A stretch of 64,000 nucleotides of DNA from a bacterium (GTDB lineage Bacteria > RBG-13-61-14 > DATKZS01), in contig CAXXFL010000003.1 of the NCBI GenBank assembly GCA_963674965.2, forward strand, positions 320,001 to 384,000, in the 5' to 3' direction. Shown one piece after another: positions 536 to 56,472 of this stretch (within the stretch, counting starts at the first letter, position 1; each line of letters starts with the position of its first letter). A program made the translations under genes and the position numbers. Under the pieces are notes generated by a model. The model saw nothing but the letters and a program-made list of their open reading frames with translations, was not told the DNA's origin and did no database searches.

Positions 536-622
<87 letters not shown>

Positions 623-632: not shown

Positions 633-666
633 AAGGCGGCGAGGATTGTCCTTACCGCCTTTTTTT
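633..666 (+). terminator. Rho-independent terminator after tRNA-Leu
   Basis: AAGGCGG..AGGA-TTG-TCCT..CCGCC hairpin followed by a T-run. Confidence 0.8.
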
Positions 667-760
667 CATCTCTTTGCGCCATAACCGCTTGCCGCGAGAT
701 ACTCTCACTTTTAAAATATCTCCTTGTTAATCCGGTCCTTGCTGGTAGACTATAGTCCAA

Positions 761-2659
761 ATGGGTAAATACAAAACGGCTTTGGCGGCCATTGTGGGGG
801 CGGCCATAGTGGGGGGATTCGTTATTCACCTGTCCCTCGACCGCCGCGTACAGGACGTGATCGAGGAGACCAGGACCGAGGCTTTGGAAGTATCTCCCGG
901 CGCCGAGCTGGTGGGCGAGATGGACTTCTACGCGCCCGCGCCCGACGGCGTCCAGTCCTTTTTCCGGCTCCTTCCGGCCGCGGACATGGTCTCCTGGAAC
1001 GAGCGCCTGGTCCTGGCCACGGGCGGGGGCCTGCTGATCTATAAAGACGGAGTCCGCCTTCACCTGTCCTCCCTTAACGGCCTGCCCGGGACGGAAGTCA
1101 CCTGCCTCGCCACCTGGCTCGACCAGCTATTGGTGGGCACCACCGACGGCCTGGCCATACTGGACGAGAAGACGGTCCGCTCCTACCGGTTCGCCGACGC
1201 CAAGGCCAACCATATCTCTTGCCTCCTCTCCACCGACTCCGGGGTCCTCATCGGCACCCAGGGGGGAGGCCTGCTCCATTACGACGGGTCATCCATCGGT
1301 TACCACCCGGCCCTGCGCGACGCGAGGGAACTTATGGTCTCGGCCCTCTCCTTTCGGGACGACGGCTTCGCCGTGGGCACCTGGCGCTCGGGCGTTTTCT
1401 TTATCGACGACTCGTCCATCGTCGGCGGCGTCCGCGGCCAGGGCCTCATCGACCCGGTCACGGCCCTTCTCGAGACCGACTCCAACCTCCTTATTGGCTC
1501 ACCCGTGGCCCTCCAGGCGCTTAAGGCCGACGGGGGCCTTAGCGTAATCATGCCCGACGTCAACGTTTCCTCGATGCTGCTGGGGGACGGGGCCATCTGG
1601 ATCGCGGCCGGAAGCGACGGGGTCATCACCCTCGATGGGGAGGACATGACTTTCAGTCCAGCCCGGGACGAAATAATGAACGTCCGCTCAGTGGGAGGCG
1701 AGGTCTACGCCCTTGGCGTGGGAGGGGTCTCGCGGGTTACGGAAGAAGGACTCGAGCCGCTTCCCGAGTATGTTTCCTCCCAGGACCAGGAGCTCGTGGA
1801 CAACCACCTCACCTCTCTGGCCGCGGCCCCTCCCGACAAGCTGTGGATCGGGACCTTCGAAAAAGGGGTCCAGACGATCGAGAGCTTCGGCGACGGGGGC
1901 GAGGCGTTTCTCGAGCCCGACTTCGGGGCCGTGAACCGCGTGGTCCCCAACGTGGCCGACGGCAAGATATACGTGGCCACCAACCGGGGCGCGCTGGTCT
2001 ACTCGAGCGGCGTCTTGATCGACGCGGTGACGCGGGAGGACGGCCTGATCGGGGAGGCCGTTTTCGACGTGCTTCCCCTTGCCGGCGGCGAGGTGGCCTA
2101 CGCCACCAACAAGGGCGTCACCATCCAGGGCGCCGGGGGCTTTAGAAGCCTTTACGCTTTCCACGGCCTGGTTAACAACCACGTCTATTGCCTGGCCGAG
2201 TTTCAAGGCAAGATAGCCGCGGGGACCCTTGGCGGCCTTTCCTTTATCGAGGACGACCGTGTGATAAAAAGCTATACCATGGACGACTCGCCCCTTCGGC
2301 ACAACTGGATCAACGCCCTTGTCGCCTCGCCCGAGACGCTTTACGTGGGGAGTTTCGGTGGGGGCGTCGTGGCCCTGACCGGCGAGATGGAGTGGCTGGA
2401 CCTGTCCGGTCCCATGGACAAGGCGAACGTCAATCCCCACGCGCTCCTGCTCGAGGCGGACCGGCTTTACGCCGGGGTCTTCGGACAAGGCCTTTATTCG
2501 CTGAATCTCGAGAGCGGAAAATGGAGCGCCTGCCGCGGGCCTCTTCCCTCTCGCAACGTTACCGGTCTGGCCCGGTGGACCGGAGTGGGCGGACGCGAGA
2601 GTCTCGCCATAGCCACCGACGCCGGCCTGATCATGGCCGGTCCCGGATACGTCGAATGA
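761..2659 (+). CDS. Membrane-anchored multi-blade beta-propeller protein (two-component-regulator-propeller-like repeats, no kinase part)
   Basis: 632 aa; N-terminal hydrophobic helix; repeated blades of the type 'LxxNxVxxL...LWIGTxxGL' (GLPGTEVTCL, LVDNHLTSL, GLVNNHVYCL, LRHNWINAL, LPSRNVTGL). Confidence 0.8.
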   Translation: MGKYKTALAAIVGAAIVGGFVIHLSLDRRVQDVIEETRTEALEVSPGAELVGEMDFYAPAPDGVQSFFRLLPAADMVSWNERLVLATGGGLLIYKDGVRLHLSSLNGLPGTEVTCLATWLDQLLVGTTDGLAILDEKTVRSYRFADAKANHISCLLSTDSGVLIGTQGGGLLHYDGSSIGYHPALRDARELMVSALSFRDDGFAVGTWRSGVFFIDDSSIVGGVRGQGLIDPVTALLETDSNLLIGSPVALQALKADGGLSVIMPDVNVSSMLLGDGAIWIAAGSDGVITLDGEDMTFSPARDEIMNVRSVGGEVYALGVGGVSRVTEEGLEPLPEYVSSQDQELVDNHLTSLAAAPPDKLWIGTFEKGVQTIESFGDGGEAFLEPDFGAVNRVVPNVADGKIYVATNRGALVYSSGVLIDAVTREDGLIGEAVFDVLPLAGGEVAYATNKGVTIQGAGGFRSLYAFHGLVNNHVYCLAEFQGKIAAGTLGGLSFIEDDRVIKSYTMDDSPLRHNWINALVASPETLYVGSFGGGVVALTGEMEWLDLSGPMDKANVNPHALLLEADRLYAGVFGQGLYSLNLESGKWSACRGPLPSRNVTGLARWTGVGGRESLAIATDAGLIMAGPGYVE

Positions 2660-2678
2660 CCCGAAAAGGATAAATTAA

Positions 2679-5144
2679 ATGAAACCAGTATTCCGCGAGC
2701 ATGGAGCGAGAATCTCCCTGGCCTTATTGTTGGCGACGGCCGTGGCCGCCTTCTTTGTGCTCCGGCCGGGAGAGCGCGGGGCCCGGGCCGAAATAGGGGC
2801 CTTTAGACTCGCGTCCTGGCAAAGCGACAAGGGGCCCGGAGCCATATCTCTGGCCGACCTCGATATCAAGATCGAGATATCGGGAGGCTTCGCCCAGGTA
2901 CGGCTCACGCAATATTTCGAGAACAAGACCGACGCCATCCTCGAGGGGACCTATTACCTCAAGCTCCCGGCCGACGCGACCCTCATGAACTTCGGAGTCT
3001 GGGACGAGGGAAAATTCACCGAGGCCGTCGTCATCGAGCGGGAGGCGGGAAGAAGGGCCTACCAGGAGATAGTCAGCCGCATGGTCGATCCCGCCCTGAT
3101 GGAGGCGCCCGAGGCCGAGATTACCGACGCCTTCCAGGTCAGGGTCGCCCCCATCCCGCCGCGGGCGGTCAGGAGGATCGAGTCTTCCTTCCACCTGTGG
3201 CTGCCCGTCAGGCGGGGAAAGAGGGTCTTTATCCTGCCCTTGAAACCGGGACCGACCCTCTCCGCCGAAAGGGCGCAAAGGTGCAAGATCGACGTGACCT
3301 TGCGCGAGACCTCCCCCCTTCAGGCCGTCGCCTGGAGCGCGCCGTCCTCGGTCAAGCCGGAAATCGGGGGTACCTGGCCCAGCCTGTCCGACCCACCGAG
3401 AGATACCGAGACCTGGACCCTCAAGTGGGAGGGAGGGCCTCTCGAGCTGGACGAGGACCTTACCCTGCAAATTCCCCTGGACCAAAGCCGAAGCTCGATG
3501 AGCGTGACAGTCTATCGTGACGCGGACTCGAGGCGCCTGGATGTATCGGCCACCGGCGGCGAGACCTACCAGGACGATTCCGGCTACTTTCTGGCCGAGG
3601 CCTTCTTCAGCCTCGAGGGCGAAAGGGAAGCCGAAAACCAAAACGCGCCCGAGCCGGCCAGGCCGGCGAGGAACGTGGCCATACTTTTCGACGTGTCCCT
3701 TTCCATGGGCTTCGATAAGCTGGTCAAGGCGGTCGAGGTGTTCGACTCCGTCCTTGCCGACCTCTCCGAAAAGGACCGCTTCGCGGTGATAACCATGGGA
3801 GGCGAGGTCAAGTCCTGGCAAAAGTCCCTCCTTGGCGCCACGGCAAAAAACAAAAGCGAGGCCCACGAGTTCCTGCGGCGGTCGCCCCTGGCCGGCGGCA
3901 CGAGGCTGGCCGAGGGCCTGGCCGAGGCGCTGGCCGCCCTCTCCGACGGCTCGGGAAGAGAGGGCAGGATCGTCGTCATCTCCGACGGACGGCCGACCAT
4001 GGGCGAGATCGTACACGCGAAGCTTCTCGAGGCCGCGGCGAGCGCGAACAAGACCGACGCGGGTTTTCCAGCGGCCGGCCTTTACGTCTTCGGAGTGGGG
4101 GAGGACGCCAACGTTCCCCTGCTCAAGGAACTGGCCCGGCAAAGCAAGGGATACTTTATCTGGGCCCGCGAAACCGAGTCGCTCGAGTCCAAGCTGCCCC
4201 CCTTTTTAAGGGCCCTCGCCGGAGACCCGGTAAAGGACGTGGGCCTCGAGGTTTCTCCCGCGGCCGGCGTGACCATGGTCTACCCCGCCGACAGGCAAAG
4301 CGCCTTTGACCTCGAGTCCATCCACTGGTCCGGCAAGTACGCGAACCCCGAGCCTCAGGCCAGGTTCAGCGCCTCCGGGACCCGGGACAAGGAAACGGTC
4401 ATTGTCGAGAACCTGGCGTCCCTGCCCGAGAAGGAGACGGAAAACGACTTCGTGGCTCGCCTCTGGGCGCAACAAAGGGTCGAGTTCCTGCTGGAAAAAA
4501 TTCGAAGGGAGGGCGAGACCGAGGAGTGGATCGACGAGATCGTGGCTTTATCCAAGCGTTTCAAGTTCCCGACCCCTTATACCTCCTACCTGGTGGCGCC
4601 GAGGGCCTTTCTGAGGCCGCGCGTGATCAGGCCCGCCGACCCGGTAATCAAGATCAAGGCCCCACCCGACACGGCCGCCGTGACGGCCCTCCTGCCCTTC
4701 GGCGAGACCAGGCGCATGACCAGGATCGGAGCCGGACCCGAGTGGGAAACCAGGTTCCTCGTGCCCCTCTGGATGAAGGACGGCCAGTACTTCGCCAGGA
4801 TCGTGCTCACCGATTCCTCGGGCAAGAAGACCATGGAGTACAAGGAGTTCGTCGTGGACGGCTCGCCTCCCCGCCTCAAGCTGAGGCTGCCCGATGAGGC
4901 CCCGGGGCCGGGACGGACGCTCGAGATAGCGGTCGACGCCGATCCCGACGTCAGGACCATTAACGCCAAGCTGGGATGCCTGCCCGCGGCCCCCGTCAAG
5001 TGGGACCCGGAGGCCAGGATCAACAAGGGGTCCATCCTCCTACCCGCGGGATGGCCAAGCGGAGAATACACCCTGAGGATCACCGCCGAGGACTTCGCCC
5101 ATAACGTGACTTCCCTCAGCGCCAAGGTCACGGTTGGAGAATGA
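2679..5144 (+). CDS. VIT (vault/inter-alpha-trypsin) + vWA domain protein with C-terminal Ig-like domains
   Basis: 821 aa; N-terminal TM/signal; VIT pattern (LTQYFENKT..LEGTY...GRRAYQEIV..DPALME); intact MIDAS (FDVSLSM, GGT, ISDG); ITIH-like 'LSKRFKFPTPYTSYLV'. Confidence 0.88.
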   Translation: MKPVFREHGARISLALLLATAVAAFFVLRPGERGARAEIGAFRLASWQSDKGPGAISLADLDIKIEISGGFAQVRLTQYFENKTDAILEGTYYLKLPADATLMNFGVWDEGKFTEAVVIEREAGRRAYQEIVSRMVDPALMEAPEAEITDAFQVRVAPIPPRAVRRIESSFHLWLPVRRGKRVFILPLKPGPTLSAERAQRCKIDVTLRETSPLQAVAWSAPSSVKPEIGGTWPSLSDPPRDTETWTLKWEGGPLELDEDLTLQIPLDQSRSSMSVTVYRDADSRRLDVSATGGETYQDDSGYFLAEAFFSLEGEREAENQNAPEPARPARNVAILFDVSLSMGFDKLVKAVEVFDSVLADLSEKDRFAVITMGGEVKSWQKSLLGATAKNKSEAHEFLRRSPLAGGTRLAEGLAEALAALSDGSGREGRIVVISDGRPTMGEIVHAKLLEAAASANKTDAGFPAAGLYVFGVGEDANVPLLKELARQSKGYFIWARETESLESKLPPFLRALAGDPVKDVGLEVSPAAGVTMVYPADRQSAFDLESIHWSGKYANPEPQARFSASGTRDKETVIVENLASLPEKETENDFVARLWAQQRVEFLLEKIRREGETEEWIDEIVALSKRFKFPTPYTSYLVAPRAFLRPRVIRPADPVIKIKAPPDTAAVTALLPFGETRRMTRIGAGPEWETRFLVPLWMKDGQYFARIVLTDSSGKKTMEYKEFVVDGSPPRLKLRLPDEAPGPGRTLEIAVDADPDVRTINAKLGCLPAAPVKWDPEARINKGSILLPAGWPSGEYTLRITAEDFAHNVTSLSAKVTVGE

Positions 5145-8100
5145 TCATGAGTTGCCTTAACCGCCGAAAATATTTTTCGGCCGCGATGGTCTTAGCGGCG
5201 TCCTTTTTCGCCTCGGCCTTATATTGCTCATCCGCGGCGGGATCGGAAAAAAGCCGCGATCCCTACTTCCGGTCGCCGGAGGAAGTCCAGGTACCGGGCG
5301 CGGTAAGGGCGCGGATGGATGGACTCTATTACGAGTTCATGCCCCTCATGGGATCGTCCTGCCTCGCGCCCAGGACGCCGGCCGAGGTCGAGAAGGGACT
5401 TGCCGGCCTCATCGAGGCCTTTCCCGAGGAGACGGACCTGTACCTGGAAAGGGCCGGGGCGAGACGCTCGATGGGCGACGCCGCCGGGGCCCTGGCCGAT
5501 ATCCAGACCGCCGTACAAAAGGCAAAGGACAAGAAGAGGGCCCTTAGGGCCCTGGCCGACTTTTACGGCGACGGGCTGGAGCGAAAAAAAGAAATCGAGG
5601 CCCTGGACTCCCTCCTGGCCGAGCTCGAAAAGGGACCCACCCAAAACAAGGCCGCCATCAAGTCCCTGATCGGCGAGATTATTTCACGCGCCTCGGCCGG
5701 CCTGGTCGCGATCGACGAGAAGGCCTACCGGCGCCGCTTCGTGGACCTGTTTCCCGACGATATCGAAGCGGCCCTGACCTATCTTAAGGAGGTCGCCAAA
5801 AGCTCGGACGAACGTGAGGCCCTGGCCGAGACGGCCAACTTCATGGGCCGCTTCCCGGAAAGGCCCGAGCCTTTCCTCGCCATCATGGCGGATATCCATT
5901 ACGCGGGCGGCCACAAGGACAAGGCCATCGAAGTTTACCTGGACGGGCTCACGCCCGAGTCGAGGCCGTCGGTGTTCTACTCCTTTTTCGAAAGCCTGCA
6001 AAAACGCGACGACCTCGAGGCCTTTGCAAACGAAATCAAGAACCCCGCCGGAAAGCACTCGGAAAAGGACAAGGCCATCGTCTTTCACCTTATGCTCTTC
6101 GACGGAGACTGGGAGGAGGCCTCGAGTTTTCTCGAGCGCTGGCTGAAAGATACTCCCGAGACGAAAAAGGAAAAGCTGAGGACCTTCGCCCGATACTTCA
6201 CCCTCTGTCAGAGACACGAGCGAGCGGCCCAGCTAAGGTACGGGGGACTGGCCGAGGCCGGCCCCAAGGAAAGGGAGGAGTGGATCGGAGAGCTTTATTC
6301 ATCCCTCCTGAGCAGCCGCTCGGGCGCGATGGCGGCCCCCGGCTCCATGGCGGGCCCGTTTTCCATCAGGCTTCTCGACCCGAGCCCCGGAATAACGGGC
6401 GGCCTTCTTTCACTCCTCTTAAACGGACGAGAGATGGGCGAGACCTTCTCCGATATCTCCCGGATGGAGGAAAGGCACGCCAACTTAGCCCTCGCTCTCA
6501 ACCTGCTCGCCAAGTACCGAGAGGATTTCCCCGACGGGCGCCTGGCCCCCGAGATGGAAATGGCCGCCATCGGCCGATACTGGGACCTGGGCTACTGGAA
6601 CGCCGCGGCCGCGGCCGCCGACGCCTTTTTAAGGGACCATCCCGAAAACGAGCTGGCCGCCGCCGTCCTCGAGAAGCGCTGCGCCTCCCTTATAAACCTG
6701 GGCAGGTTCGAGGAGGCGGACGCCGGCTACGGCGAGCTTCTTTCGCGGGTCGGGGGGGACGAGGACAAGTATCTCGCCGTCCTTTCCGAGTACGCCCGGC
6801 GCCTGAGAAGCAAGGAGCGCGTTCCGCAAATGGTCGCCCTGTATTGGAGGGAGGTCGAGGCCCATCCTGAAAATCGGCGGCTCTACGACCAGTTCCTTCA
6901 GGACATATCCTACCTCAGCCTGGATGAGGACAAAGCCAGGCTCTATCGGATGGCCGTGAAAAAAATCCCCGGCCGCGGCTGGTACGACCGGCTTTCCCGC
7001 TATTACCTCCGAAGCTCGATGTTCGCCGAGTATGAGGAAACGCTTGGCTCCGCCGTCGAGTCCCTGCCCGAGGACGAGATCGGTCCTTTCCTCGACGGCG
7101 CCGTGGGAGAGATGAAGAACTCGAAATGGACGGCCGTCAAGGCGGCATTGTTCCTCGAGGCCCATCGCAAGTACCCCCGGAACCCCGAGTACATGAAACG
7201 ATATATTCAACTCGCGCAAAAGATCGAGAAATGGGAGAAGAATTCCAACTCCCTTCCCTCCCCCTCCTCGGTCGAGTTCGCCAGGCAAAACCTGATGGAC
7301 GACCCGCAAACGGACGGCTTTATCGGGCGGTCCCTGCTCGAGGGCATGATGGCCCGGGACGATCTCAGGTCCGAGCTGGCCAGGCTGGAGGACGGATGGA
7401 GCGTCAACCCGGCCGAGACCTACTTTCTCGCCATCGCCCACGATCACTTGGGCCAGTACGAGAAGTCCCTTTCCCACTGGCGGCGGCTGGCCGAAATATA
7501 TCCGGGCACGGCCCAGTTCCAGGAGACCCTTTCCGAGCGTCTTCTCGGATTGTCCCGGTCCCGGCCCAAGGAGTATCCATCCTCCTCGTCCGAGGCGGTC
7601 GAGGTCATGTCCCGAGCCGCTAAAATGTATCCCGCCTCCTCCCGTTTCCCGACCGCGATCGGGGAGGCCCTGGCGGAGCGGGGCAGGTTCGGCGAGGCCC
7701 TCGCCTGGTGGGACAAGCCGATCGAGGCCGAGCCCGGCCGGCCGGGACCTTACCTGCGGGCGGCCGAGATCGCCTGGGACTATTACCAGTACGACGCGGC
7801 CATCGAGAGGCTGCGACTCGCCCGCGAGCGCCTCAAGGACCCCGCCCTGTTTGCCCTCGAGATCGGGGCGGTGCTCGAGGACAAGGGTCAGGCCGATCAG
7901 GCTATCGCCGAGTACGTGAACGCCCTTTGTCAAAAGGATGGAAGGTCCCAATACAAGATTCTTAGCCGCCTGGACGCCCTGGCCGGACGGGAAGGACTGG
8001 AAAGCCTCATCGACTCCCGCTTCCAGGCCGCCATCCTGCATGCCCCCTCCAACCCCGGTCCCGTCTGGTCCTATTACGATTACCTCAACCTCCGGGAAAG

Positions 8101-11100
8101 GAGCGGCGACGGTGGAAAACTCCTGCTTGACGCGGCGGAAAGGATAAGCGACGTCAAGTTCCTTCACGAGGCCCGGATGGCCCTCGAGATAAGCGGGCTA
8201 AAGGAAGCCGAGTTGGCCGTCATTCGCAAACTGGTTCAGGCCAAAGACCCCAGTCCCGATGACGTCATCAGGCTGGTCAGGTACTTCCGCTTGAACGGGG
8301 GCGAGGAAATCGGCGCGGCGGCGGACTCGGCCGCGGCCGTCATAGCCTCCATTCCCGCCGCCAAGGCCAGGCTCCACTATTACCGGGAGCTGGTCGAGGA
8401 ACTGATCCTGGCGGGAAGGCTCGAGAGGGCGGCCGAGGCCCTGCGAAGGGTCCTGCCCGACGCGAGGGGAGACGATAAGAAAAGCGCGGTCCTCGAGTTC
8501 GCCCGGGTGCTGTCCGATCTCGATAATTACGCCGAGGCGGCGAACGCGCTCGATTCCCTTCTCGAGGAGCGAGGATGGGATGAGGACGTCTTTCGGGCGC
8601 TGGTGTCCGTCCACGTCGCCCGCAAGGACCATATTTCCATCATCGAGTTGAACGGGAAACAAAAGAAAGCCATCGCCTCCAAAATCAAGGGAGTCATGGA
8701 AAGAAGGCGGGAGTACGCCTCGCTTCATCTGGTCACCGCCTCGGCCCTGGCCGAGCTGCGTCGGGCGGGCGAGGCCCTGGATTACTACATGGAGTGGCTC
8801 AACCAGGACCCCACCGACCCGGACAAGCTGAGGACCGTTTTTGTTTACGCCAAACAAAGAGGCCTCGAGAAAAAGGTTATCGAGAGATACGAAAAGGAGG
8901 CGAGAACGGCGAACAAGGATTATCGCTGGTCTTTGTCGGCGGGCCGGCTCGAGGCCTGGGACCACGACTTGAAGGAAGCGGCCAAGTCGTATAACCGCGC
9001 CGCGTGGAACGAGCCGGGCAAGGCGGTCCTTTACGAGGAGGCGGCCAAGGTCCGCGTCGCCCTCCATGAATACGAGGAGGCCGCCAAACTGCTCGAGTCG
9101 CTTTACGCCATCGAGAAAGAATCGGACCAGCTTGGAAGGGCCGCCCGCTCCTGGGCCCTGGCCGGACGGGAGGACAAGGCCCTCGAGATAGTCGCCGCGA
9201 GCGTCAAAAGGGGCGGAGGCCGATCGAGATACTTCAAGGCCGCGCTGGCCCTCGAGGCGGCCGGGCTGCCGGAGGAGGGCCTGACTTACCTCGAGACCGG
9301 GCTCGAGGAGGCCCTGCAAAAAATCGAGAGGAACTCCATATCGCGAGGCGAGTTGGACGACCTGGTCCGCATTTACGCCAAGGCCGGCAAGACGGAAGAG
9401 GCCATGGACCTCATCTTCGGGGCCTGGTCGAGGGCCCTCGAGAAAAGCTCGAACCCGTCCAACAAGTACGTCAAGTGGAGGATCGACCAAAACCTCCGCG
9501 CCATCCGGACGGCCGCTCTCGAGACGATTCCTCTCGAGCTGTTGCAAAGAGGGAAAGCCCAAGACCTCGCGTCGGCCGAAAGCCGGATAAACGCCGCCAT
9601 GAAAGGATCGCCCTATCCCGCGGCCGACCTGGACGCCTTTGCTAAAAATTGCGGCTTCACCGACCAGGCCGCCGAATTGGTGGACGAGGAGTCGAAACGC
9701 GATTCCAACCACCTCCTCGTTATGGCCGACTTCTGGGCCGGAAGACTGGCCTGGAAAAAAGTTGTCGCCTTGGACGCTCAGCCCTCCAGGCGGCGCGCCA
9801 ACGCCTTCCTCTGGATGGATCAACCCGACAAGGCTCTGGCCGAGCTGACAAGCTTATACATGGTCCACTCCGGCGGATATGAGCCCCTCCTTTACCTGGC
9901 GGCCGAACGAAACGCGGAGCAAACGCTGAAGCTCTGCCTGGACGACGGGAGCAACGTGGCCGAGGAGGCCGATTACCTTGTCGAGCTGGGCCGTCCGGAC
10001 CTCGCCATCCGTACCATTCGGTCCAGCAAGGACCCGGTATGGAGCGCCTTTAAGGAAATGCTGGTAAAGGACCACTTCTCGGAGAAGGACCCCGAGCTGG
10101 CCGCTCGGGCGGCCGCGGCTCTTCGGAACTGGAGCGTGAGCGCCCGGCTTGACTCTCCCTTCAACGCCGCGCTCGAGGCCAGGGGCCACGAGTACTCGGT
10201 TATGGCCATGGAGTACGCCCGCTATCTGAAGCTTCTCGGCCGGGGTCCCGAGGCGCGGGACTTTTACTACGCGGCCGCGGAGGAAAGCCCGACTTCTTAC
10301 GAGGCTTTCCGGTACCAGGGAATACTGGCGCTGGAGATGGGCGACCTCGACCTGGCGAGGGACGGATTTGCCAAGGCCCTCGAGATCGAGCCGCCCGACC
10401 TTTCCTCCCGAAACGGCCTGGCCCTGGCTATCCTGAAGTCCGGAAACAAAAAGGACGCCCTTAAAAACCTGGAGCTTCTGGCGAAGGACTCCTCCACCTG
10501 GGACCGCGCCGAGTACAAGTACTACGCCATGCTCTCGCGGGGAATGGAAAAAGAGGCGGTGGAATTCATCGTCCGCTGGGCCAAGGCCGCCTACGCCGAT
10601 TATCGGGATTCGGGGATGCTCGGCGTTCGCGAGCTCGCCCTCCTGGCCGAGAAGAAACCCTCCCTTGCCCGGGCCCCGCTGACCGACCTCGTCCAATACC
10701 TCATCGCCTCATATCCGGACGACGTGGAACTGGCCTCATCGGCCGTTTTCGAGGAGCTGCTAAGGGGCAAGGACGCGGACCCGGCTTATGACGCCCTCGT
10801 CCTGGCTTACGGCAAGGACCGAAACGCCGAGGGCGATCTTCATCTCTGGGAGGATAGAAGGATCGACCACTGGCTCGATACCGGCAGGTATGAAGAGGCC
10901 CTGGAGGAGTTGAACCGGCGCGAGATTCCCCTTTCCCCGGGAGAGGTCCCGCCCGAGAACGTGAAGAGACGGGCCAGGGCCCTTATTGGAAAGGGAGAAA
11001 CCGGCGAGGCCCTTGTCTCTCTCGAGTCCTTTCTGAGCCTGGACCCGTATTCCTTGGACGCGCTCAAGCTGGCCCGCGAGGTGGCCCTGGAAGAGGGCCT

Positions 11101-12346
11101 TGCCGAAAAAGCCGACGAATACCAGGATAAACTGTTCAAGCTTCAGCTTGTGGACCCGGACGCGGGCCTTGAAGTCTACGAGGGATACGCCTCGTTCCTG
11201 GTCCGGTCGGGCGAGATGGACGCCGCCGCGGCCGTCGCCGAGCAAGCGGTCTCCGACAAGCCGGGCTCGCTCGCCGCGCTGATAAAGGCCGCCGCCATAT
11301 TCGAGGAGATGAAGGATTATCAAAAAGCCATCGGGCAAAGGCGCCTGGCGGAGGACCTCGAGCCCCAGGACGCGGGCAACCTCGCCGCGTTGGGCGCCGA
11401 CCTCATCCGGATCGGGAAGGAGAACGAAGCGCTTCTCGTTTTCCATGACGCCCTTGTCTCGAGCTCGATTTCCAGGAATCAAAAGATCGAGATGCTCCGC
11501 GTGGCCCGGGACGTCCTGATGGAGGGAAACGAGGAAGCCGCGAAAACGTTTTTCGATCACTTCAGCGAGCGGGCCGGCAAGGGTTCGGACTTCGACGACC
11601 TTATTTGCCTGGCCGCCGCCGTCTCGGCCAGGGCCGGGGGCGACGGGGAGTACGCGGCCCGGACGGCCTCGGCGCTCGTCGGACCCGGCTTTCCATCATC
11701 CTCCTCGTTCCTCGGCCAAACTCTCCTGGAAGCGGGACGCGCCAAGGAGGCGGCCGGGATTTTAACGGCAAGCCTTTACCGTTTCCCCGGCGACGACGAC
11801 GCCCGGGCCCTGCTTGGTCTTTGCCATTTGAGGCAAGGCGAGCCGGCCAAGGCGGTCAGTCTTATTTTCGGCCAAAGCGGTTATTTTTTGCCCGGCGAGT
11901 TCGAGGACGAGTACTGGGCGCGGGACCGGGCGCGCCAAGTCCTGGGCGGCGGGCTCGAGCTCGAGTTCAAGATCGAGCTTGTAAGAGGGCTGGCGGATGG
12001 ACTTCTCAAGCTGGAGTCGCATGACGCGGCGCTCGCGGCGCTTGGGACCCTGCTCGATTATCTATCGGAGGGCGGAGAATACGAAGGTCCATCCCGCGCT
12101 CACGAGGAAACGGTTTCCGCCGGCGCGCTGGACAAGGAGCTTTCCGAGTCCATCGGCAAGCAACTGGCGACGATCGAAAAGGCCCGCCGGGAGAAAGAAA
12201 AAGAGTCCGGGCAAAGGCCCCGCGTACTCGAGCGGCTCGACAACGCCGAGGCCTGGTCCGATTTGCCGCCCGACCTGGAGTTCCCCGGGAAATACTACTG
12301 GTCCATGGCGGATGAAGCCGCCGCCGGGAAGGAGGGACAAAAATGA
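5141..12346 (+). CDS. Giant exported TPR / alpha-helical repeat protein
   Basis: 2401 aa; signal-peptide-like N-terminus; many TPR-like units (e.g. YEAFRYQGILALEMGDLDLARDGFAKALEIEP); ATGA overlaps with both neighbours; coding-type codon usage. Confidence 0.85.
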   Translation: MIMSCLNRRKYFSAAMVLAASFFASALYCSSAAGSEKSRDPYFRSPEEVQVPGAVRARMDGLYYEFMPLMGSSCLAPRTPAEVEKGLAGLIEAFPEETDLYLERAGARRSMGDAAGALADIQTAVQKAKDKKRALRALADFYGDGLERKKEIEALDSLLAELEKGPTQNKAAIKSLIGEIISRASAGLVAIDEKAYRRRFVDLFPDDIEAALTYLKEVAKSSDEREALAETANFMGRFPERPEPFLAIMADIHYAGGHKDKAIEVYLDGLTPESRPSVFYSFFESLQKRDDLEAFANEIKNPAGKHSEKDKAIVFHLMLFDGDWEEASSFLERWLKDTPETKKEKLRTFARYFTLCQRHERAAQLRYGGLAEAGPKEREEWIGELYSSLLSSRSGAMAAPGSMAGPFSIRLLDPSPGITGGLLSLLLNGREMGETFSDISRMEERHANLALALNLLAKYREDFPDGRLAPEMEMAAIGRYWDLGYWNAAAAAADAFLRDHPENELAAAVLEKRCASLINLGRFEEADAGYGELLSRVGGDEDKYLAVLSEYARRLRSKERVPQMVALYWREVEAHPENRRLYDQFLQDISYLSLDEDKARLYRMAVKKIPGRGWYDRLSRYYLRSSMFAEYEETLGSAVESLPEDEIGPFLDGAVGEMKNSKWTAVKAALFLEAHRKYPRNPEYMKRYIQLAQKIEKWEKNSNSLPSPSSVEFARQNLMDDPQTDGFIGRSLLEGMMARDDLRSELARLEDGWSVNPAETYFLAIAHDHLGQYEKSLSHWRRLAEIYPGTAQFQETLSERLLGLSRSRPKEYPSSSSEAVEVMSRAAKMYPASSRFPTAIGEALAERGRFGEALAWWDKPIEAEPGRPGPYLRAAEIAWDYYQYDAAIERLRLARERLKDPALFALEIGAVLEDKGQADQAIAEYVNALCQKDGRSQYKILSRLDALAGREGLESLIDSRFQAAILHAPSNPGPVWSYYDYLNLRERSGDGGKLLLDAAERISDVKFLHEARMALEISGLKEAELAVIRKLVQAKDPSPDDVIRLVRYFRLNGGEEIGAAADSAAAVIASIPAAKARLHYYRELVEELILAGRLERAAEALRRVLPDARGDDKKSAVLEFARVLSDLDNYAEAANALDSLLEERGWDEDVFRALVSVHVARKDHISIIELNGKQKKAIASKIKGVMERRREYASLHLVTASALAELRRAGEALDYYMEWLNQDPTDPDKLRTVFVYAKQRGLEKKVIERYEKEARTANKDYRWSLSAGRLEAWDHDLKEAAKSYNRAAWNEPGKAVLYEEAAKVRVALHEYEEAAKLLESLYAIEKESDQLGRAARSWALAGREDKALEIVAASVKRGGGRSRYFKAALALEAAGLPEEGLTYLETGLEEALQKIERNSISRGELDDLVRIYAKAGKTEEAMDLIFGAWSRALEKSSNPSNKYVKWRIDQNLRAIRTAALETIPLELLQRGKAQDLASAESRINAAMKGSPYPAADLDAFAKNCGFTDQAAELVDEESKRDSNHLLVMADFWAGRLAWKKVVALDAQPSRRRANAFLWMDQPDKALAELTSLYMVHSGGYEPLLYLAAERNAEQTLKLCLDDGSNVAEEADYLVELGRPDLAIRTIRSSKDPVWSAFKEMLVKDHFSEKDPELAARAAAALRNWSVSARLDSPFNAALEARGHEYSVMAMEYARYLKLLGRGPEARDFYYAAAEESPTSYEAFRYQGILALEMGDLDLARDGFAKALEIEPPDLSSRNGLALAILKSGNKKDALKNLELLAKDSSTWDRAEYKYYAMLSRGMEKEAVEFIVRWAKAAYADYRDSGMLGVRELALLAEKKPSLARAPLTDLVQYLIASYPDDVELASSAVFEELLRGKDADPAYDALVLAYGKDRNAEGDLHLWEDRRIDHWLDTGRYEEALEELNRREIPLSPGEVPPENVKRRARALIGKGETGEALVSLESFLSLDPYSLDALKLAREVALEEGLAEKADEYQDKLFKLQLVDPDAGLEVYEGYASFLVRSGEMDAAAAVAEQAVSDKPGSLAALIKAAAIFEEMKDYQKAIGQRRLAEDLEPQDAGNLAALGADLIRIGKENEALLVFHDALVSSSISRNQKIEMLRVARDVLMEGNEEAAKTFFDHFSERAGKGSDFDDLICLAAAVSARAGGDGEYAARTASALVGPGFPSSSSFLGQTLLEAGRAKEAAGILTASLYRFPGDDDARALLGLCHLRQGEPAKAVSLIFGQSGYFLPGEFEDEYWARDRARQVLGGGLELEFKIELVRGLADGLLKLESHDAALAALGTLLDYLSEGGEYEGPSRAHEETVSAGALDKELSESIGKQLATIEKARREKEKESGQRPRVLERLDNAEAWSDLPPDLEFPGKYYWSMADEAAAGKEGQK

Positions 12347-14091
12347 AGACGCTCAGCTTGTTCAGCCCGGGAGGAAAAGCAAGGCTTCTCGCCCTGGTAG
12401 CGGCGGCCGTCCTTCTCGCCGCGCTCACGGGTTGCCCGGCCAAGGACGGCGGCGAACGGAGAGGCGGTGAAGGCGCCGCTCAAGTCCCCGCGGCCTTTAG
12501 CGGCCATTCTCCCCCCCCGGCCTTGATGGAAGCCGCATCCCCCTTTCCCGCGGGGGCGCTGGTATTCCTTTACTCGCCGGACCTGTCCGATCTGCTCGAA
12601 AAGGTCGAGACTTCCTCCAGCCTCAAGGTCTATCTTGACTCTCAGGGCCACGCGCGCTTCAAGGACTCCCGTCTTTTCCGGAAACTGACCACCCGTTTCG
12701 AGGAACTGGCGGGCCTGGCCTCGGACGAGGCCCGCTTCGGGGACCTGGCCGGCCTGGCGGGAAAGGAAAGCGCCCTGGCCCTCTACGACATAGGGGAGGT
12801 CAAGTTCGTCTACTCGAGCCGGGCGCCGATGGAGAAAATCTCCCGGGCCATGCTCTGGGGCGCTCGGGACAAGGCGGAGGAGATCGGCCTGGAGGGAGAG
12901 ACTTATTACGCCCTGGTTTCATCGGGCGGACCCGGCGCGCTTTACTTCGGCGTACGGGAGGAATCTCTCGTCGTCTCCAATGATGAAGACCTTTTCCAGA
13001 GCGTGTTCTCCGCCCTCGGCGGCGGCGAGGCCCAGACGCCGAAACTGTCGGAATCGGACCCGTTCAAGTCGGCCTTTCCCAAGGACCTCGAGGCCGGCGA
13101 CCTGGTCATGTACCTGGACCAGGAGGCGCTCAACCAGGACTGGTATTTCAAGCATTACTGGATTTATCAAAACCTCGAGGATATCTCCTGGATTAAAAGC
13201 GCGGCCGTGGACCTCGAGATCGGCGACCTCCTTTGGCGGGAGCGAAGGTTCATCGCCGGGGAAGGGCCCCCGGATCGATACGTCAACCGGGACCTGTCCA
13301 TGCGGGACGCCTTGGCGCCGCTGGGAGATGTCCTCGAGTGCGTCGGCTCGCCGGGCGACAATGAAGCGGCCATGCTCGCGCTGGGAAACCTGTTCACCGC
13401 CTCGGAACTCGGCGAGGCCCTGAAAGGCGGCGACGCGGGCGAGGGGAAGGCGCGGACGCTCGCCGAGTGGATCGGCCGGCTTGGGGAAATCCTGCATCCG
13501 GCCGGACCGGTCGCGGCCGGTTCCGTCAGCGGCCTCGAGTGGACGGAAGGCCGCGTATTCTGGCGCCGGCGTGGATCGGTGGTCCTCGAGCTGGCCCATC
13601 CCGGCGAGCTGGACCTTGCCGGACTTCGCCGGGAGTGGGCCGCCAACTGGAGCAAAATCCTTTTCGGCGCCTCCTCCCATCAGCTTGAATGGAAGAAAGG
13701 GCAAGAGGGGACCGCCCTGTCCATGCCTTTCCTGAAGGACATGGAAATTCTGATCGACGCCGACGGGCCTTACCTGATCGTCTCGAACGACGCGAGAATG
13801 CACGTCGAGGTGAAAAAGGCCCTCCTTGCCCCGGCGGGGACCTCCAGGGACCCTTTTAGCGGGGCCTACTATTCCAGATGGGACATGAACGAGGCTGGTC
13901 ATTCGGTTCGCCTCGCCTTCGACGCCCTGGACCGTTATGGGGACTGGCCCAGGATGGAAAGCAAGAACGCCCTTCTCGACCTGCGGTCTCTTCTTGACGC
14001 CATGGGTCCGGGAGTGGCGACCCGCGAGGTCCTGGCCGGCGACGACCTGCTGGAGGAGCGCGTAACCTTCAAGGGAGAAATCCCCGGATGA
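12343..14091 (+). CDS. Hypothetical lipoprotein
   Basis: 582 aa; lipobox LAALTGC after a hydrophobic stretch; SD GGAGGG; translationally coupled to the giant TPR gene. Confidence 0.75.
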   Translation: MKTLSLFSPGGKARLLALVAAAVLLAALTGCPAKDGGERRGGEGAAQVPAAFSGHSPPPALMEAASPFPAGALVFLYSPDLSDLLEKVETSSSLKVYLDSQGHARFKDSRLFRKLTTRFEELAGLASDEARFGDLAGLAGKESALALYDIGEVKFVYSSRAPMEKISRAMLWGARDKAEEIGLEGETYYALVSSGGPGALYFGVREESLVVSNDEDLFQSVFSALGGGEAQTPKLSESDPFKSAFPKDLEAGDLVMYLDQEALNQDWYFKHYWIYQNLEDISWIKSAAVDLEIGDLLWRERRFIAGEGPPDRYVNRDLSMRDALAPLGDVLECVGSPGDNEAAMLALGNLFTASELGEALKGGDAGEGKARTLAEWIGRLGEILHPAGPVAAGSVSGLEWTEGRVFWRRRGSVVLELAHPGELDLAGLRREWAANWSKILFGASSHQLEWKKGQEGTALSMPFLKDMEILIDADGPYLIVSNDARMHVEVKKALLAPAGTSRDPFSGAYYSRWDMNEAGHSVRLAFDALDRYGDWPRMESKNALLDLRSLLDAMGPGVATREVLAGDDLLEERVTFKGEIPG

Positions 14092-14104
14092 CGAAATCGA
14101 TCGA

Positions 14105-16180
14105 ATGAAAAATGAAGGAAAAGAAAAAAGGTCCTTGAAAAAAGTCCCGGCCGAGATCGGACGCGCTCTTTTGGCGGCGGCCGCGGCGGCCTTTTCCACC
14201 GGGGCGGTTTCCTTTTACAGGGGCAACTTCGCCACCAGCCCCCTCGTCTCCTTCGCCCTTTTCGGGGCCGCGCTGTGGCTGGTTTTAAGACTGATCGTTT
14301 TCAGGAAGTCCCGGGGGCGAAGGTCGCCCGCTCCGATAGCCGCCTATTTTATTTCCGTCGTCATCCTGTCTTTTATAACTCACCGGGCGGAGCCGACCTC
14401 GGTCAGCTACCTTCCCCTGGGGGACGAAAGCGGGGCCGAGCTATCCGGGCCCCTTCACGACGCGCTCAAGGTCAAGGTGACCGGGCCTTTCAGAACGGAG
14501 ACCCGGGCGGCCTCCCGGATGCCTCTCGTTCCCGGCCTGGCCTTTTCCTTAGCCGTGCCCAAGGACGGCGTTCTTAACCTGGGGGCCCTGGCCGAGAGTA
14601 AAGGCCGTCCCGTCGGGGACGTGGTCATCGAGGTCGCGATCGGCGGACAAGCGGGAGTCGGCCGCCGGAAAATCGGGGAGGTCGCCACTTCCGCCGAGGG
14701 CTGGAGCGACGTATCCATCGACCTTTCCGGCTTCGGTCCGGGTCGGGCCGGCGTCTCCCTGCAAGTCGCGTCCGGCGAGCTGGGCCATCTGAAGGAAACG
14801 AGCCTCTGGGTCAGCGGGCCTCGAGTCTCGACGCGCTCAGGTGCGCCCAACTTGATGCTCATCGTTATCGACACGCTCCGAGCGGATCATCTGTCCTGCG
14901 ATCCCGCCGCTCCGAGAGCGACCCCCAACCTGGCCAAGTGGGCGGCGCGCGGGACCTGGTTCACCCGCAACTACTCCCAAAGCTCCTGGACCCTTCCATC
15001 CATCGCCTCCATCTCCACCTCGCGCATGCCGGCCGAGACCGGAGCGGTCAACGTCAGCGAGTTCAAGCTCGAGGACCGAAACCTCACTTTGGCGGAGACC
15101 CTCTCGAGCCTCGGATACGGGACCGCCATGGTCACGGCCAACCGCGTCATCTCCGCCGGAAACGGGTTCGACCAGGGGTTCGACTCCTTCGTCTCCGTCA
15201 AAAGCAGGCTAAGATACTCGCTCGGAAACGCGCACAGGGTCAACCGGGAGACGCTTGATATAATCGAGCGAGCGTCACCACCCTTTTTCGTCTTCGCCTT
15301 GTACATCGACCCGCATATGCCTTACCTGGCCCCCTGGTCGGACGCGGACTACGCGGGCGTCCTGGGCCAGGCCTTCTTCTCCAGCGCCGGGGCCATGCTC
15401 GATAACTTCATGTCCTCTTCCATTACCGGCTACAGGCGACCGGCGCCCTGGAGCGTTGAGGCCAACAAGCGCCTATACGACGGGGAGGTCAGGTACGTGG
15501 ACCGGGCGTTGGGAGAGCTTTTCGAGGAGTTGGAAAAGCGGGGCCTCCTGGAGAACCTGGTGGTAGTGATCGCCTCGGACCATGGGGAGGAGTTCGCGGA
15601 GCACGGACTTACCGGCCACGGCACGTCTCTTTTCGAGGAACTGATCCGCGTTCCCCTCGTGGTGATAGACTTTCGGGAGGAGGGGCAAAAAGTCGCGAGG
15701 TGGGACGGACTGACCACCAACCTGGACGTGGCGCCCACCTTGCTGGACCTGGCGGGCTTTCCTCCCGCCGAGGGCATGTTGGGGAAATCCTTGAGGCCCG
15801 TCATGATGGGACAATACGAAAGCCGGGAAAGGGCCGCCTTTTCCGAGCTTCCCGAGATACTCCACTACGGGGAACTCGAGGAGATTCACCGGCCCGGGCT
15901 GCGCGACTCCTACCTCCGTTCCATGGTGCGGGAAAAAAAGAAACTGATCAGTCACGTCAACCTTAAGGACAAGGGGGTTACGATTTCCGCTTTCGACCTT
16001 GCTCTCGATCCCTCGGAGGTCATGGACCTTAAGATCGACCCGCCCCCCTGGATGTCCGGGTCGCGGGAGGAAATGGAGCTTTTCTTCGGCGACATGCCCG
16101 ACCCCCACGACCTTCCGAGGGGCGAGCCGCTCGACGCCGGGACCCTGGACCTCCTCAAGACCCTCGGCTACGTGCAGTGA
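14105..16180 (+). CDS. Membrane-anchored sulfatase-like hydrolase/transferase (alkaline phosphatase superfamily)
   Basis: N-terminal TM helices; PNLMLIVIDTLRADHL, SSWTLPSIAS, DPHMPY, YDGEVRYVD, SDHGEEF, C-terminal LKTLGYV. Confidence 0.88.
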   Translation: MKNEGKEKRSLKKVPAEIGRALLAAAAAAFSTGAVSFYRGNFATSPLVSFALFGAALWLVLRLIVFRKSRGRRSPAPIAAYFISVVILSFITHRAEPTSVSYLPLGDESGAELSGPLHDALKVKVTGPFRTETRAASRMPLVPGLAFSLAVPKDGVLNLGALAESKGRPVGDVVIEVAIGGQAGVGRRKIGEVATSAEGWSDVSIDLSGFGPGRAGVSLQVASGELGHLKETSLWVSGPRVSTRSGAPNLMLIVIDTLRADHLSCDPAAPRATPNLAKWAARGTWFTRNYSQSSWTLPSIASISTSRMPAETGAVNVSEFKLEDRNLTLAETLSSLGYGTAMVTANRVISAGNGFDQGFDSFVSVKSRLRYSLGNAHRVNRETLDIIERASPPFFVFALYIDPHMPYLAPWSDADYAGVLGQAFFSSAGAMLDNFMSSSITGYRRPAPWSVEANKRLYDGEVRYVDRALGELFEELEKRGLLENLVVVIASDHGEEFAEHGLTGHGTSLFEELIRVPLVVIDFREEGQKVARWDGLTTNLDVAPTLLDLAGFPPAEGMLGKSLRPVMMGQYESRERAAFSELPEILHYGELEEIHRPGLRDSYLRSMVREKKKLISHVNLKDKGVTISAFDLALDPSEVMDLKIDPPPWMSGSREEMELFFGDMPDPHDLPRGEPLDAGTLDLLKTLGYVQ

Positions 16181-16193
16181 AAATAAACGCGGC

Positions 16194-17507: not shown

Positions 17508-17614
17508 GGCAAACTCCATAACCATCGTTATCTTGCAATTGAGGCCGTTTGTATTTTCCGCCTTTACCATGTTACAAAAGCCCGATATGGGTTACAACCG
17601 AAAAAGGAAATAAA

Positions 17615-22241: not shown

Positions 22242-22250
22242 GTCCTCTCG

Positions 22251-23354: not shown

Positions 23355-23364
23355 TCCAGCCCTT

Positions 23365-33951: not shown

Positions 33952-33993
33952 GGCGCCCCTCCCTTATTAACCGGCCCCGCCCGGGACCGCGAC

Positions 33994-35397: not shown

Positions 35398-35440
35398 AGT
35401 TTCCTCCGTGCTCCCGGGCCGCCGGCCATGAACCAGGGGC

Positions 35441-37828: not shown

Positions 37829-37902
37829 TCGGGACGACTGGATTTGAACCAGCGACTTCCTGCTCCCGAAGCAGGCGCGCTACCAGGCTGCGCCACGTCC
37901 CG
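37829..37902 (-). tRNA. tRNA-Pro(CGG), CCA not encoded
   Basis: Reverse complement CGGGACGTGGCGCAGCCTGGTAGCGCGCCTGCTTCGGGAGCAGGAAGTCGCTGGTTCAAATCCAGTCGTCCCGA folds as a cloverleaf. Confidence 0.96.
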
Positions 37903-43572: not shown

Positions 43573-43585
43573 AAGGGAAGCTCCA

Positions 43586-44827: not shown

Positions 44828-44873
44828 AGTCAGCGGGTGGACCAGCCGGCGGGTGGCCCAAAAAATCCAAGAG

Positions 44874-44957
44874 TCCCAAAGGAGCACCGGCCTAAAGCCC
44901 AGGGTGACAACCCTGGGAAAATGAGTATACAAAAATCATTTTCAGACCTGAAAGGGC
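44874..44957 (+). repeat. REP-like multi-hairpin element, copy A
   Basis: Perfect CCCAGGGT-GACA-ACCCTGGG stem, then AATGA..CAAAA..TTC.G.CCTGAAAGGGC; same architecture as 58989-59075 on the minus strand. Confidence 0.55.
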
Positions 44958-56406: not shown

Positions 56407-56472
56407 GACGGTCTTATGGGTATTTTGAAAGGGCCCGGACTTAGTGATAAGTTCAGACCCGGAGTATAATTC

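Follow-up and report, generated by a model that had tools for sequence, protein, structure and literature searches.

The closest described relatives of the protein at the center of this study are the inter-alpha-trypsin inhibitor heavy chains (ITIHs) of animals. ITIH1 has an integrin-beta-like arrangement of vWFA and hybrid domains, and its C-terminal pro-domain is removed, the new C terminus of the heavy chains becoming ester-linked to chondroitin sulphate and hyaluronan (PMC7170535). Human ITIH4 is described as a bait-type inhibitor that depends on its vWA domain, in a paper with a section on a mutant of the MIDAS, an adhesion site that depends on metal ions (PMC7793589). Bacteria also have VIT-vWA proteins, such as the marine proteobacterial sortase target TIGR03788 and the VIT proteins of XrtN/PEP-CTERM type. 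The marine bacterial proteins carry a C-terminal sortase signal. Here, a stretch of 64,000 nucleotides (the window; contig CAXXFL010000003.1, positions 320,001 to 384,000, assembly GCA_963674965.2) from a bacterium of the GTDB lineage RBG-13-61-14 was analyzed, in which an ITIH-like VIT-vWA protein (gene 2, P0002) is encoded together with a predicted tandem beta-propeller protein (gene 1, P0001), a giant tetratricopeptide repeat (TPR) protein (gene 3, P0003) and a distant relative of DUF3352 proteins (gene 4, P0004). Genes 1 to 4 recur as a block in related genomes and very probably form one functional module.

Species-representative genomes were scanned with an alignment of P0002, which identified at least 563 relatives; the top 80 loci were retained together with flanks of at most 10 kb per side. 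Among these 80 loci, tblastn found homologues of P0001 in 71, of P0003 in 73 and of P0004 in 60, all on the same strand and in the order of the window. Many loci are cut by contig ends, and a second count was restricted to those with enough sequence: the propeller gene was present upstream of the VIT-vWA gene in 67 of 69 testable loci, the TPR gene downstream of it in 69 of 70, and gene 4 downstream of the TPR gene in 59 of 63 by tblastn or in 62 of 65 when a family hidden Markov model was run on six-frame translations. The propeller was missed in L024 and L030. Gene 4 was missed by the family model in L024, L010 and L016; in the latter two, a TPR gene of ~2,600 amino acids (aa) leaves ~600 nucleotides (nt) of flank, and the remainder held no gene-4 match. 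Homologues of genes 1 to 4 measured 592-788, 752-904, 1996-2641 and 524-615 aa, respectively, apart from one gene-4 fragment of 311 aa.

This order is kept at only 22-36% identity to the window proteins; the closest relative, L001, a metagenome-assembled genome, is 43, 52, 36 and 40% identical for genes 1 to 4. All-against-all clustering placed the commonest flanking family in 14 of 80 loci, versus 55-78 for the core families. Because gene order is kept while the flanking genes differ, the four genes are held together as a block. Chance is very far from explaining an arrangement that returns, with all four genes in order, in dozens of species-level genomes. When the first start codon in frame was used, an exact 4-nt overlap was counted between genes 1 and 2 in 25 of 47 pairs and between genes 3 and 4 in 38 of 47, while genes 2 and 3 overlapped in 42 of 57. 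An N-terminal hydrophobic segment was found in most homologues of every gene (49/51, 61/72, 54/62 and 47/48 for genes 1 to 4). Judged from these sequences, the genes are inherited as a block and are apparently translationally coupled by overlapping stop and start codons.

The original prediction for this locus, made from the DNA letters and their open reading frames (ORFs), had named beforehand one test that could refute it, namely whether the four core genes co-occur across genomes; by homology and neighborhood search they do, in the same order and on the same strand. A match to an already characterized system was the other outcome that it had named as refuting, and no such match was found in the literature searched or by PADLOC. 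The latter returned 0 matches for all five proteins of the cluster (including P0005, considered below), so it is not a known anti-phage defence system. Searches of Creative-Commons papers in PubMed Central and of bioRxiv turned up no account of the cluster or of a function for it.

P0002 consists of a signal peptide, a body of VIT, hybrid and vWA domains, an invariant linker and a candidate Ig-like domain at the C terminus. Pfam recognized the VIT domain with an E-value of 7.9e-20 (71.5 bits against a cutoff of 26.5) and the vWA domain with 7.3e-13. A profile of nine orthologues matched human ITIH4 (9c4f; E 1.2e-52, query 48-635 to chain 25-593) and ITIH1 (6fpy; E 4.2e-45), and by these colinear matches P0002 is a true homologue of the inter-alpha-inhibitor heavy chains, an architecture that had been recognized at the outset. 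Colinearity with ITIH1-4 extends across the VIT/hybrid part, the vWA domain with its MIDAS and a T-P-x-T-S motif. The MIDAS, already predicted to be intact, has all five of its residues (D338, S340, S342, T408 and D436), and none of them varies across the 69 family members aligned, which comprise the window protein and 68 locus ORFs of 740-870 aa.

The best-conserved part of P0002 is the linker, K-F-x-T-P-Y-T-S...P-R-x-x-L-R-P-R-x-I-R-P-x-D-P (residues 629-655), in which most positions are 97-100% conserved across the 69 sequences and which ends in an invariant D654-P655 (...R-P-G/A-D-P) at the border between the ITIH-like body and the C-terminal domain. The region behind it reached 25.1 bits against the Big_13 cutoff of 27 and an Atlas score of 0.86 to Big_13-bearing clusters, which makes its Ig-like character a lead only. 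A separate C-terminal domain behind the body is thus common to P0002 and the ITIH heavy chains, with ~165 aa of apparently Ig-like sequence in the former compared with a pro-domain of ~240 aa in the latter. In contrast to ITIH, P0002 is a bacterial, periplasmic protein whose operon also includes the propeller, TPR and DUF3352-like genes, and the animal partners bikunin, TSG-6 and chondroitin have no counterparts here.

P0002 also aligned with the sortase-target family TIGR03788 (residues 327-683 on positions 268-610 of 629; E 3.3e-34). Membership in this family was rejected at 118.3 bits against a cutoff of 551.65 and without an LPXTG motif; the C terminus (...KVTVGE) has neither an LPXTG nor a PEP-CTERM signal, and Pfam found no sortase or exosortase domain among the window ORFs scanned. 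The vWA profile additionally matched the BatB structure 3ibs (E 3.8e-5) and 4jdu, an ‘aerotolerance-related membrane protein’ (E 5.2e-4). Some distant VIT(-TPR) proteins (P0052, P0053) end in DUF2135, the domain of Escherichia coli YfaP.

P0001 was recognized by the Pfam Reg_prop family (E 3e-7, 30.3 bits against a cutoff of 20.4), and its AlphaFold 2 model, generated with 48 homologues (pLDDT 90.9), presents a long N-terminal helix followed by two tandem beta-propellers. Foldseek matched this model to the periplasmic sensor domains of the Bacteroides hybrid two-component systems BT4663 (E 1.4e-20), BT4673 and BT3049 (E range 1e-20 to 6e-18), of which BT4663 senses heparin/heparan sulphate according to its PDB description, while by TM-score the nearest structure was PorZ of the type IX secretion system (TM 0.61/0.53). 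P0001 is therefore modeled as a tandem propeller on an N-terminal membrane helix, with the fold of Bacteroides glycan sensors and PorZ. The chain ends at residue 632 with the last propeller blade, and no further Pfam domain was detected in the scan. Unlike the hybrid two-component sensors, whose tandem Reg_prop double-propeller fold it has in common, P0001 lacks Y_Y_Y, histidine kinase, receiver and DNA-binding output domains and so would be unable to signal as they do; unlike PorZ, it has no type IX C-terminal domain.

The signal peptide of P0003 is followed by a TPR-type solenoid throughout, as far as this is visible to Pfam, NCBIfam and PDB sequence searches. The N-terminal ~1400 aa are better conserved than the remainder (61 sequences). 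Generic or designed TPR proteins and OGT were the only PDB sequence matches, which revealed no hidden enzymatic domain, and conservation showed no catalytic-looking block. NCBIfam returned weak matches to the TPR lipoproteins Tgl, GltE, PilW and PrsT, all far under their cutoffs. In other bacteria, including Nannocystis, proteins of ~1,400 aa exist in which VIT-vWA and TPR domains are fused, often with FecR (P0021-P0047), and these VIT-vWA-TPR(-FecR) fusions tie the two modules together in one chain.

P0004 matches no Pfam or NCBIfam family. A word-index homologue search with P0004 or with a 98-row alignment returned the query alone, and the family was reached by exhaustive phmmer, which found 387 clusters (at 50% identity) at E<=1e-3, 301 of them at <=1e-10. 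None of 60 family members scanned (out of 98 aligned) reached any Pfam cutoff, that of DUF3352 (PF11832) included, although one of the 60 had a sub-threshold, colinear PF11832 match (E 0.041). By hhalign, the P0004 family aligned with a DUF3352-matching family over 283 columns (94.2% probability, E 1.1e-7); the first member of the latter hits PF11832 at E 4.8e-14. The P0004 family profile also detected DUF3352 paralogues in 11 Blastocatellia loci (E 2.5e-7 to 4.9e-4). On these profile comparisons, P0004 is a distant relative of DUF3352; it is an exported alpha/beta protein. Its AlphaFold 2 model (pLDDT 87.9) had one significant PDB fold match, the Treponema pallidum lipoprotein TP0453, which is weak (E 5.8e-4), has a low TM-score (0.45 on the target) and spans under half of the P0004 model. 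TP0453 is described as a lipoprotein at the inner face of the outer membrane and a proposed lipid carrier (PMC5421087). In 12 Blastocatellia loci a bona fide DUF3352 protein, of the paralogue type, is encoded upstream of the cluster (L005:4435-6435 and 11 others), and in 14 loci, all Blastocatellia, a pgsA-like CDP-alcohol phosphatidyltransferase is encoded upstream (L005:6761-7549 on the minus strand and 13 others).

In Acidobacteriota the block continues into genes for cell wall enzymes. A secreted penicillin-binding protein (PBP)-like protein of ~290 aa is encoded next after gene 4, usually overlapping it, in 42 of 50 loci with >=400 nt beyond gene 4 (e.g., L012, L019 and L044:21376-22242). 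Matches were obtained to Transpeptidase in Pfam and to the PBP2 model in NCBIfam, but none of significance among PDB sequences, and the protein stands alone with no N-terminal pedestal domain. The motifs S-L-V-K, S-C-N and K-T-G (SxxK, SxN and KTG) are conserved in the 27 aligned full-length members of a cluster of 34, 7 truncated or short members having been left out. This small PBP-like family is tied to the cluster and is apparently undescribed. A SpoIID domain follows the PBP-like gene, or is fused to it, in 6 of 7 loci with >=300 nt beyond that gene (L047, L055, L060, L061, L067 and L079; the exception is L064), as confirmed by Pfam in five loci and by tblastn only in L055. SpoIID-like genes are separate in L047 and L061, while in L060:20994-22169, L067:21074-22138 and L079:20859-22166 (Bryobacteraceae or unclassified acidobacterial) PBP-like sequence and SpoIID are apparently contained in one ORF, which could be a fusion or a frameshift artefact of a metagenome-assembled genome. 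Since PBP-like and SpoIID-like genes continue the block in Acidobacteriota, it points to peptidoglycan; such a dedicated pair of wall-remodelling enzymes would be expected of a structure that is embedded in peptidoglycan or acts on it. Other large envelope machines have dedicated lytic enzymes that remodel the wall locally.

We tentatively propose that the products of genes 1 to 4 form one envelope complex at or through the peptidoglycan layer, which we regard as quite possible while short of an even chance. The propeller would be an inner-membrane-anchored foot that binds a glycan, and the TPR protein a platform spanning or organizing the periplasm. The ITIH-like protein would clamp an acidic ligand with its MIDAS and dock on the TPR scaffold through its invariant, Arg-rich linear linker, the DUF3352-like protein would provide contact to a membrane or lipid, and in the acidobacterial form the PBP-like and SpoIID-like enzymes would remodel the wall locally. 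The original prediction had assigned the parts of receptor (propeller), clamp (vWA), scaffold (TPR) and anchor (lipoprotein), possibly in protease trapping, envelope defence or cell contact, all of which are conjectural.

Several observations weigh against this proposal. The physical interaction is putative, and TPRs and propellers are generic interaction modules. Neither Pfam nor NCBIfam detected a peptidoglycan-binding domain (LysM, SPOR, OmpA-like or similar) in the four proteins. Homologues of the PBP-like and SpoIID-like proteins are absent from the 64-kb window, and they are not found behind gene 4 in L001 either, so the link to the wall is carried over from Acidobacteriota to the lineage of the window; SpoIID itself was assessable in only 7 loci, as the flanks end at 10 kb. 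In L024, the sole locus in which the TPR gene was missed, the VIT-vWA gene stands solo with its partners absent. For DUF3352, no paper was found in Creative-Commons PubMed Central or bioRxiv and no function is known. Finally, the lipobox of P0004 (LTGC, Cys31), from which the original prediction had derived a lipoprotein acting as anchor, is no feature of the family, since only 4 of the 48 homologues from the loci and 10 of the 98 members of the family show a lipobox-like motif. A complex prediction for an integrin-head-like pairing of P0001 (45-632) with the P0002 vWA domain (318-520) scored 0.00 in two runs for which controls were not run, and speaks neither for nor against.

An alternative that we consider unlikely is a periplasmic protease-bait defence coupled to wall repair, analogous to bacterial alpha-2-macroglobulin clusters; its mechanism, equally unlikely, would have an invading protease cut the ITIH-like protein and then be held via the MIDAS, while the PBP-like and SpoIID-like enzymes repair the wall. 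The colinearity of P0002 with ITIH4 and its invariant MIDAS fit this idea, as do the clusters of E. coli. The yfa cluster (yfaS-yfaT-yfaA-yfaQ-yfaP) combines alpha-2-macroglobulin with SpoIID/DUF2300 (YfaQ), DUF1175/NlpC-P60-like (YfaT), DUF2138 (YfaA) and DUF2135 (YfaP) proteins; yfhM is paired with pbpC. Both yfa and yfhM-pbpC thus place a large exported protein of animal plasma/matrix type beside wall enzymes, as here. The yfa clusters likewise hold an uncharacterized exported protein of ~570 aa, and SpoIID-type and PBP-type partners occur in both settings, including the acidobacterial form of our cluster. An embedding search further placed a DUF2138 cluster near P0004 (score 0.96, rank 7), and DUF2135 forms the C terminus of the distant VIT proteins mentioned above. 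However, hhalign gave probabilities of only 0.4% for the P0004 family against a single YfaA sequence, 0.3% for the DUF3352-type family against YfaA and 0.1% for P0002 against YfaP; the DUF2138 and DUF2135 links to the yfa cluster serve as a thematic parallel only.

Gene content also argues against a protease trap. Unlike the yfa clusters, this cluster has no alpha-2-macroglobulin, DUF1175 or DUF2135 gene and no recognized DUF2138 gene: scans of the 28 other window ORFs and of 13 large ORFs from the flanks detected neither alpha-2-macroglobulin nor DUF1175, and the SpoIID domain, also missing from these 28, was present only in acidobacterial loci. Tblastn with YfaP, YfaQ, YfaT and YfaA produced one weak hit, of YfaQ to the SpoIID-like gene of L061, and none in the window. 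The original prediction had noted the lack of alpha-2-macroglobulin and DUF1175 in the window correctly; it had also pointed to similar gene sets of Acidobacteria next to such genes, of which the acidobacterial setting (64 of 80 loci) and the SpoIID gene (6 of 7) were recovered and the alpha-2-macroglobulin/DUF1175 neighbors, absent from window and flanks, were not. Bait regions are variable. The segment behind the P0002 body is invariant, unlike a bait for diverse foreign proteases, and the propeller and 2,400-aa TPR protein have no role in known protease traps and no counterpart in alpha-2-macroglobulin clusters.

TPR scaffolds are used in polysaccharide export (BcsC, PelB, AlgK), and the vWA/MIDAS fold is a classic adhesion module. 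It is conceivable, if improbable, that the cluster encodes a surface adhesion, matrix or motility apparatus with the vWA protein as an exposed adhesin like CglB of Myxococcus gliding, an integrin alpha-I-domain-like adhesin of a TPR-rich gliding complex (10.1101/2020.07.22.216333). It is just as improbable that the TPR protein and propeller would serve such an apparatus as a periplasmic or outer-membrane platform or as an exopolysaccharide guide. The sub-cutoff matches of P0003 to Tgl, GltE, PilW and PrsT and the titles of 3 of the 80 loci, which name Myxococcota, lean in this direction. Conversely, genes for an outer-membrane barrel, a secretin, a glycosyltransferase, a motor or a pilus are missing from both the cluster and its conserved flanks, the matches to TPR proteins are generic, there is no sign of surface exposure, and the genes that are conserved in addition encode wall enzymes rather than export or motility functions.

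The four exported proteins might also form no complex at all and act independently, being merely co-regulated and kept in order by descent within one phylum. With 64 of the 80 loci titled as a single phylum, a putative interaction and the solo VIT-vWA gene of L024, such an explanation has something to recommend it, yet the order is maintained at 22-36% identity while the flanks are scrambled, and it is also maintained in the deep-branching lineage of the window and in the loci titled Myxococcota. Together with stop/start overlaps in most pairs and the VIT-vWA-TPR fusions elsewhere, this renders independent action distinctly improbable.

ITIH is cleaved at Asp-Pro. There is a more specific idea, to which we attach little probability: P0002 could be cut at ...R-P-G/A-D|P, shed its Ig-like domain and have the new C-terminal Asp covalently joined to a wall or matrix glycan, as a bacterial counterpart, by analogy, of the heavy-chain-to-glycan chemistry of animals. 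The double propeller would then hold the glycan, assembly would take place on the TPR protein as platform, and the acceptor would be made ready by the PBP-like and SpoIID-like enzymes. Such a linkage would fit because the two nearest relatives are fixed covalently at the same end, through an ester with chondroitin sulphate in ITIH and through sortase in the marine VIT-vWA proteins, and it is suggested by the invariant D-P at the border of the body and by an operon partner with a glycan-sensor fold. No paper on an Asp-Pro motif in ITIH was found in Creative-Commons PubMed Central or bioRxiv.

A Bat-type (aerotolerance-like) or other MoxR-dependent vWA/TPR system with its ATPase encoded elsewhere can be all but dismissed: Bat/MoxR operons do combine vWA and TPR genes, recalling BatB and BatC, and the P0002 vWA profile matches 3ibs and 4jdu weakly, but P0002 resembles ITIH (E 1e-52) much more closely than it does Bat proteins, it adds a VIT domain, an ITIH-like body and propeller and DUF3352-like partners, no MoxR/AAA+, DUF58 or BatA-type gene was found in the five cluster proteins, the 28 other window ORFs scanned or the conserved neighbors of the 80 loci (as the original prediction had observed of the MoxR partner), and export of all four proteins is at odds with MoxR partners, whose place of action is the cytoplasm. 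Judged by domain content, the block lacks what defines the Bat/MoxR, alpha-2-macroglobulin, sortase-target and hybrid two-component systems.

The cluster in the window lies behind a tRNA-Leu gene (Table 1). The hairpin after this tRNA has a fold energy of -17.5 kcal/mol (z -4.64), which none of 200 shuffles equalled, and, with its U7 run, forms a terminator that closes the tRNA-Leu transcript ahead of the gene cluster. A promoter-like site is located 44 nt before the first ATG, in a region that holds 4 such sites compared with 2.1 expected. The five genes are co-oriented, with junctions of 19 nt, ATGA (4-nt overlap), ATGA (4-nt overlap) and 13 nt, all five products have an N-terminal hydrophobic segment (P0005 has two hydrophobic segments above threshold), and Pfam recognized the propeller (Reg_prop), VIT and vWA, TPR and Sulfatase domains, with gene 4 alone remaining without a family. 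On these points (the upstream terminator, the orientation and junctions, an export signal or membrane anchor on each protein, and the domains) the original prediction proved accurate. GC content at third codon positions (GC3) is 0.79-0.83 in genes 1 to 5, matching the remaining window genes.

Table 1 Features of the gene cluster and of the ITIH-like protein, with positions in the window
Feature	Position	Strand	Basis or remark
tRNA-Leu (anticodon CAG)	536..622	+	ARAGORN; upstream boundary
Intrinsic-terminator hairpin (633-661) and U7 run	633..668	+	Fold energy against shuffles
Promoter-like site TTGCCG-17-TAAAAT	689..717	+	9/12 consensus match only
Gene 1, P0001, 632 aa, predicted double propeller	761..2659	+	ORF list
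Gene 2, P0002, 821 aa, ITIH-like VIT-vWA	2679..5144	+	ORF list
VIT domain, P0002 residues 59-168	2853..3182	+	Pfam PF08487
vWA domain, P0002 residues 332-502	3672..4184	+	Pfam PF00092; MIDAS
Near-invariant stretch, P0002 residues 629-655	4563..4643	+	Family alignment
Putative C-terminal Ig-like region, P0002 residues 656-821	4644..5141	+	Big_13 below cutoff; lead
Gene 3, P0003, 2401 aa, TPR	5141..12346	+	ORF list
Gene 4, P0004, 582 aa, distant DUF3352 relative	12343..14091	+	ORF list
Gene 5, P0005, 691 aa, sulfatase-fold	14105..16180	+	ORF list

Gene 5 had been included in the predicted operon as a sulfatase-like member. P0005 is a membrane-anchored protein of the alkaline-phosphatase superfamily (Pfam Sulfatase PF00884, E 8.8e-42) that has T-L-P-S-I at residues 296-300 in place of the C/S-x-P-x-R of formylglycine sulfatases. 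When residues 241-340 were searched for [CST]-x-P-x-[RKI], T-L-P-S-I was the sole match and no formylglycine motif was returned; phosphoryl-transfer members of the superfamily typically use Thr as the nucleophile. Tblastn found a P0005 homologue in 0 of the 80 related loci, and in L001 gene 4 is followed directly by an MMPL gene, 58% identical to the MMPL gene of the window (17549-20488). Gene 5 is therefore placed outside the module as a local addition, a lineage-specific passenger, and was rejected as a fifth subunit. Between gene 4 and the MMPL gene, the window holds the sulfatase-like gene and a convergent GMC oxidoreductase gene (16194-17570, minus strand), which is the next gene past gene 5. 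Because the MMPL orthologue adjoins gene 4 in L001, this segment (14105-17570) is a lineage-specific difference, which may be either an insertion in the lineage of the window or a deletion in L001. A second sulfatase-family gene (28060-29412) differs from gene 5: its product has a signal of twin-arginine-like type (RRTFIQ), and the formylglycine motif position reads C-S-A-S-R.

By record title, the 64 acidobacterial loci comprise 37 Terriglobia, 18 Blastocatellia and 9 without a class; of the other 16, 3 are titled Myxococcota, 5 have no phylum and 8 bear other phylum names. In a FastTree phylogeny of 68 VIT-vWA proteins, from which 13 loci with broken ORFs or lengths outside 740-850 aa were left out (L001, L002, L003 and L022 among them), P0002 of the window is on a long branch outside both the Blastocatellia and the Terriglobia clades. 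Oddly titled rows nest within these two clades, namely L010, L015, L018 and L027 (Clostridia), L072 (Betaproteobacteria), L026 (Verrucomicrobiia), L049 (Patescibacteria), L042 (Dormiibacterota) and L050 (Eisenbacteria), with L072 and L026 on very short branches (0.03-0.04). Since their VIT-vWA proteins nest in acidobacterial clades, these bins are probably mislabelled or mixed, and the spread across phyla that the titles imply was rejected.

Elsewhere in the window, a second giant TPR gene (52102-57864, minus strand; 1920 aa) has a GC3 of only 0.66 and is flanked by an alpha/beta hydrolase gene (51249-52055) and a 264-aa ORF without Pfam match (57955-58749). Near the cluster, envelope-related genes on the minus strand (20463-24348) encode a 592-aa TPR protein, an M14 zinc carboxypeptidase and the prolipoprotein diacylglyceryl transferase Lgt. 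Between 36000 and 46000, GC content drops from ~0.62 to 0.50-0.58 around a tRNA-Pro gene (37829-37902), and the ORFs at 43562-44932 (no Pfam match, GC3 0.60) and 45014-45733 (GC3 0.38) look compositionally foreign; the region may be DNA acquired beside a tRNA. A 917-aa ORF without Pfam match (32821-35574) also has a GC3, 0.61, that is low for this genome.

Overall, the block is built from known domain types, each known alone, and is new at the level of the system. Few bacterial TPR proteins known are as large as P0003. In soil, Acidobacteriota rank with the most abundant bacteria, and hardly any work has addressed the biology of their envelope; the four-gene block, which has six genes in Acidobacteriota, occurs in at least 563 genome stretches and offers a testable entry to what may be an undescribed cell-wall-associated machine, to how the ITIH/VIT-vWA family arose in evolution and what its ancestral role was, and to the function of DUF3352-like proteins.

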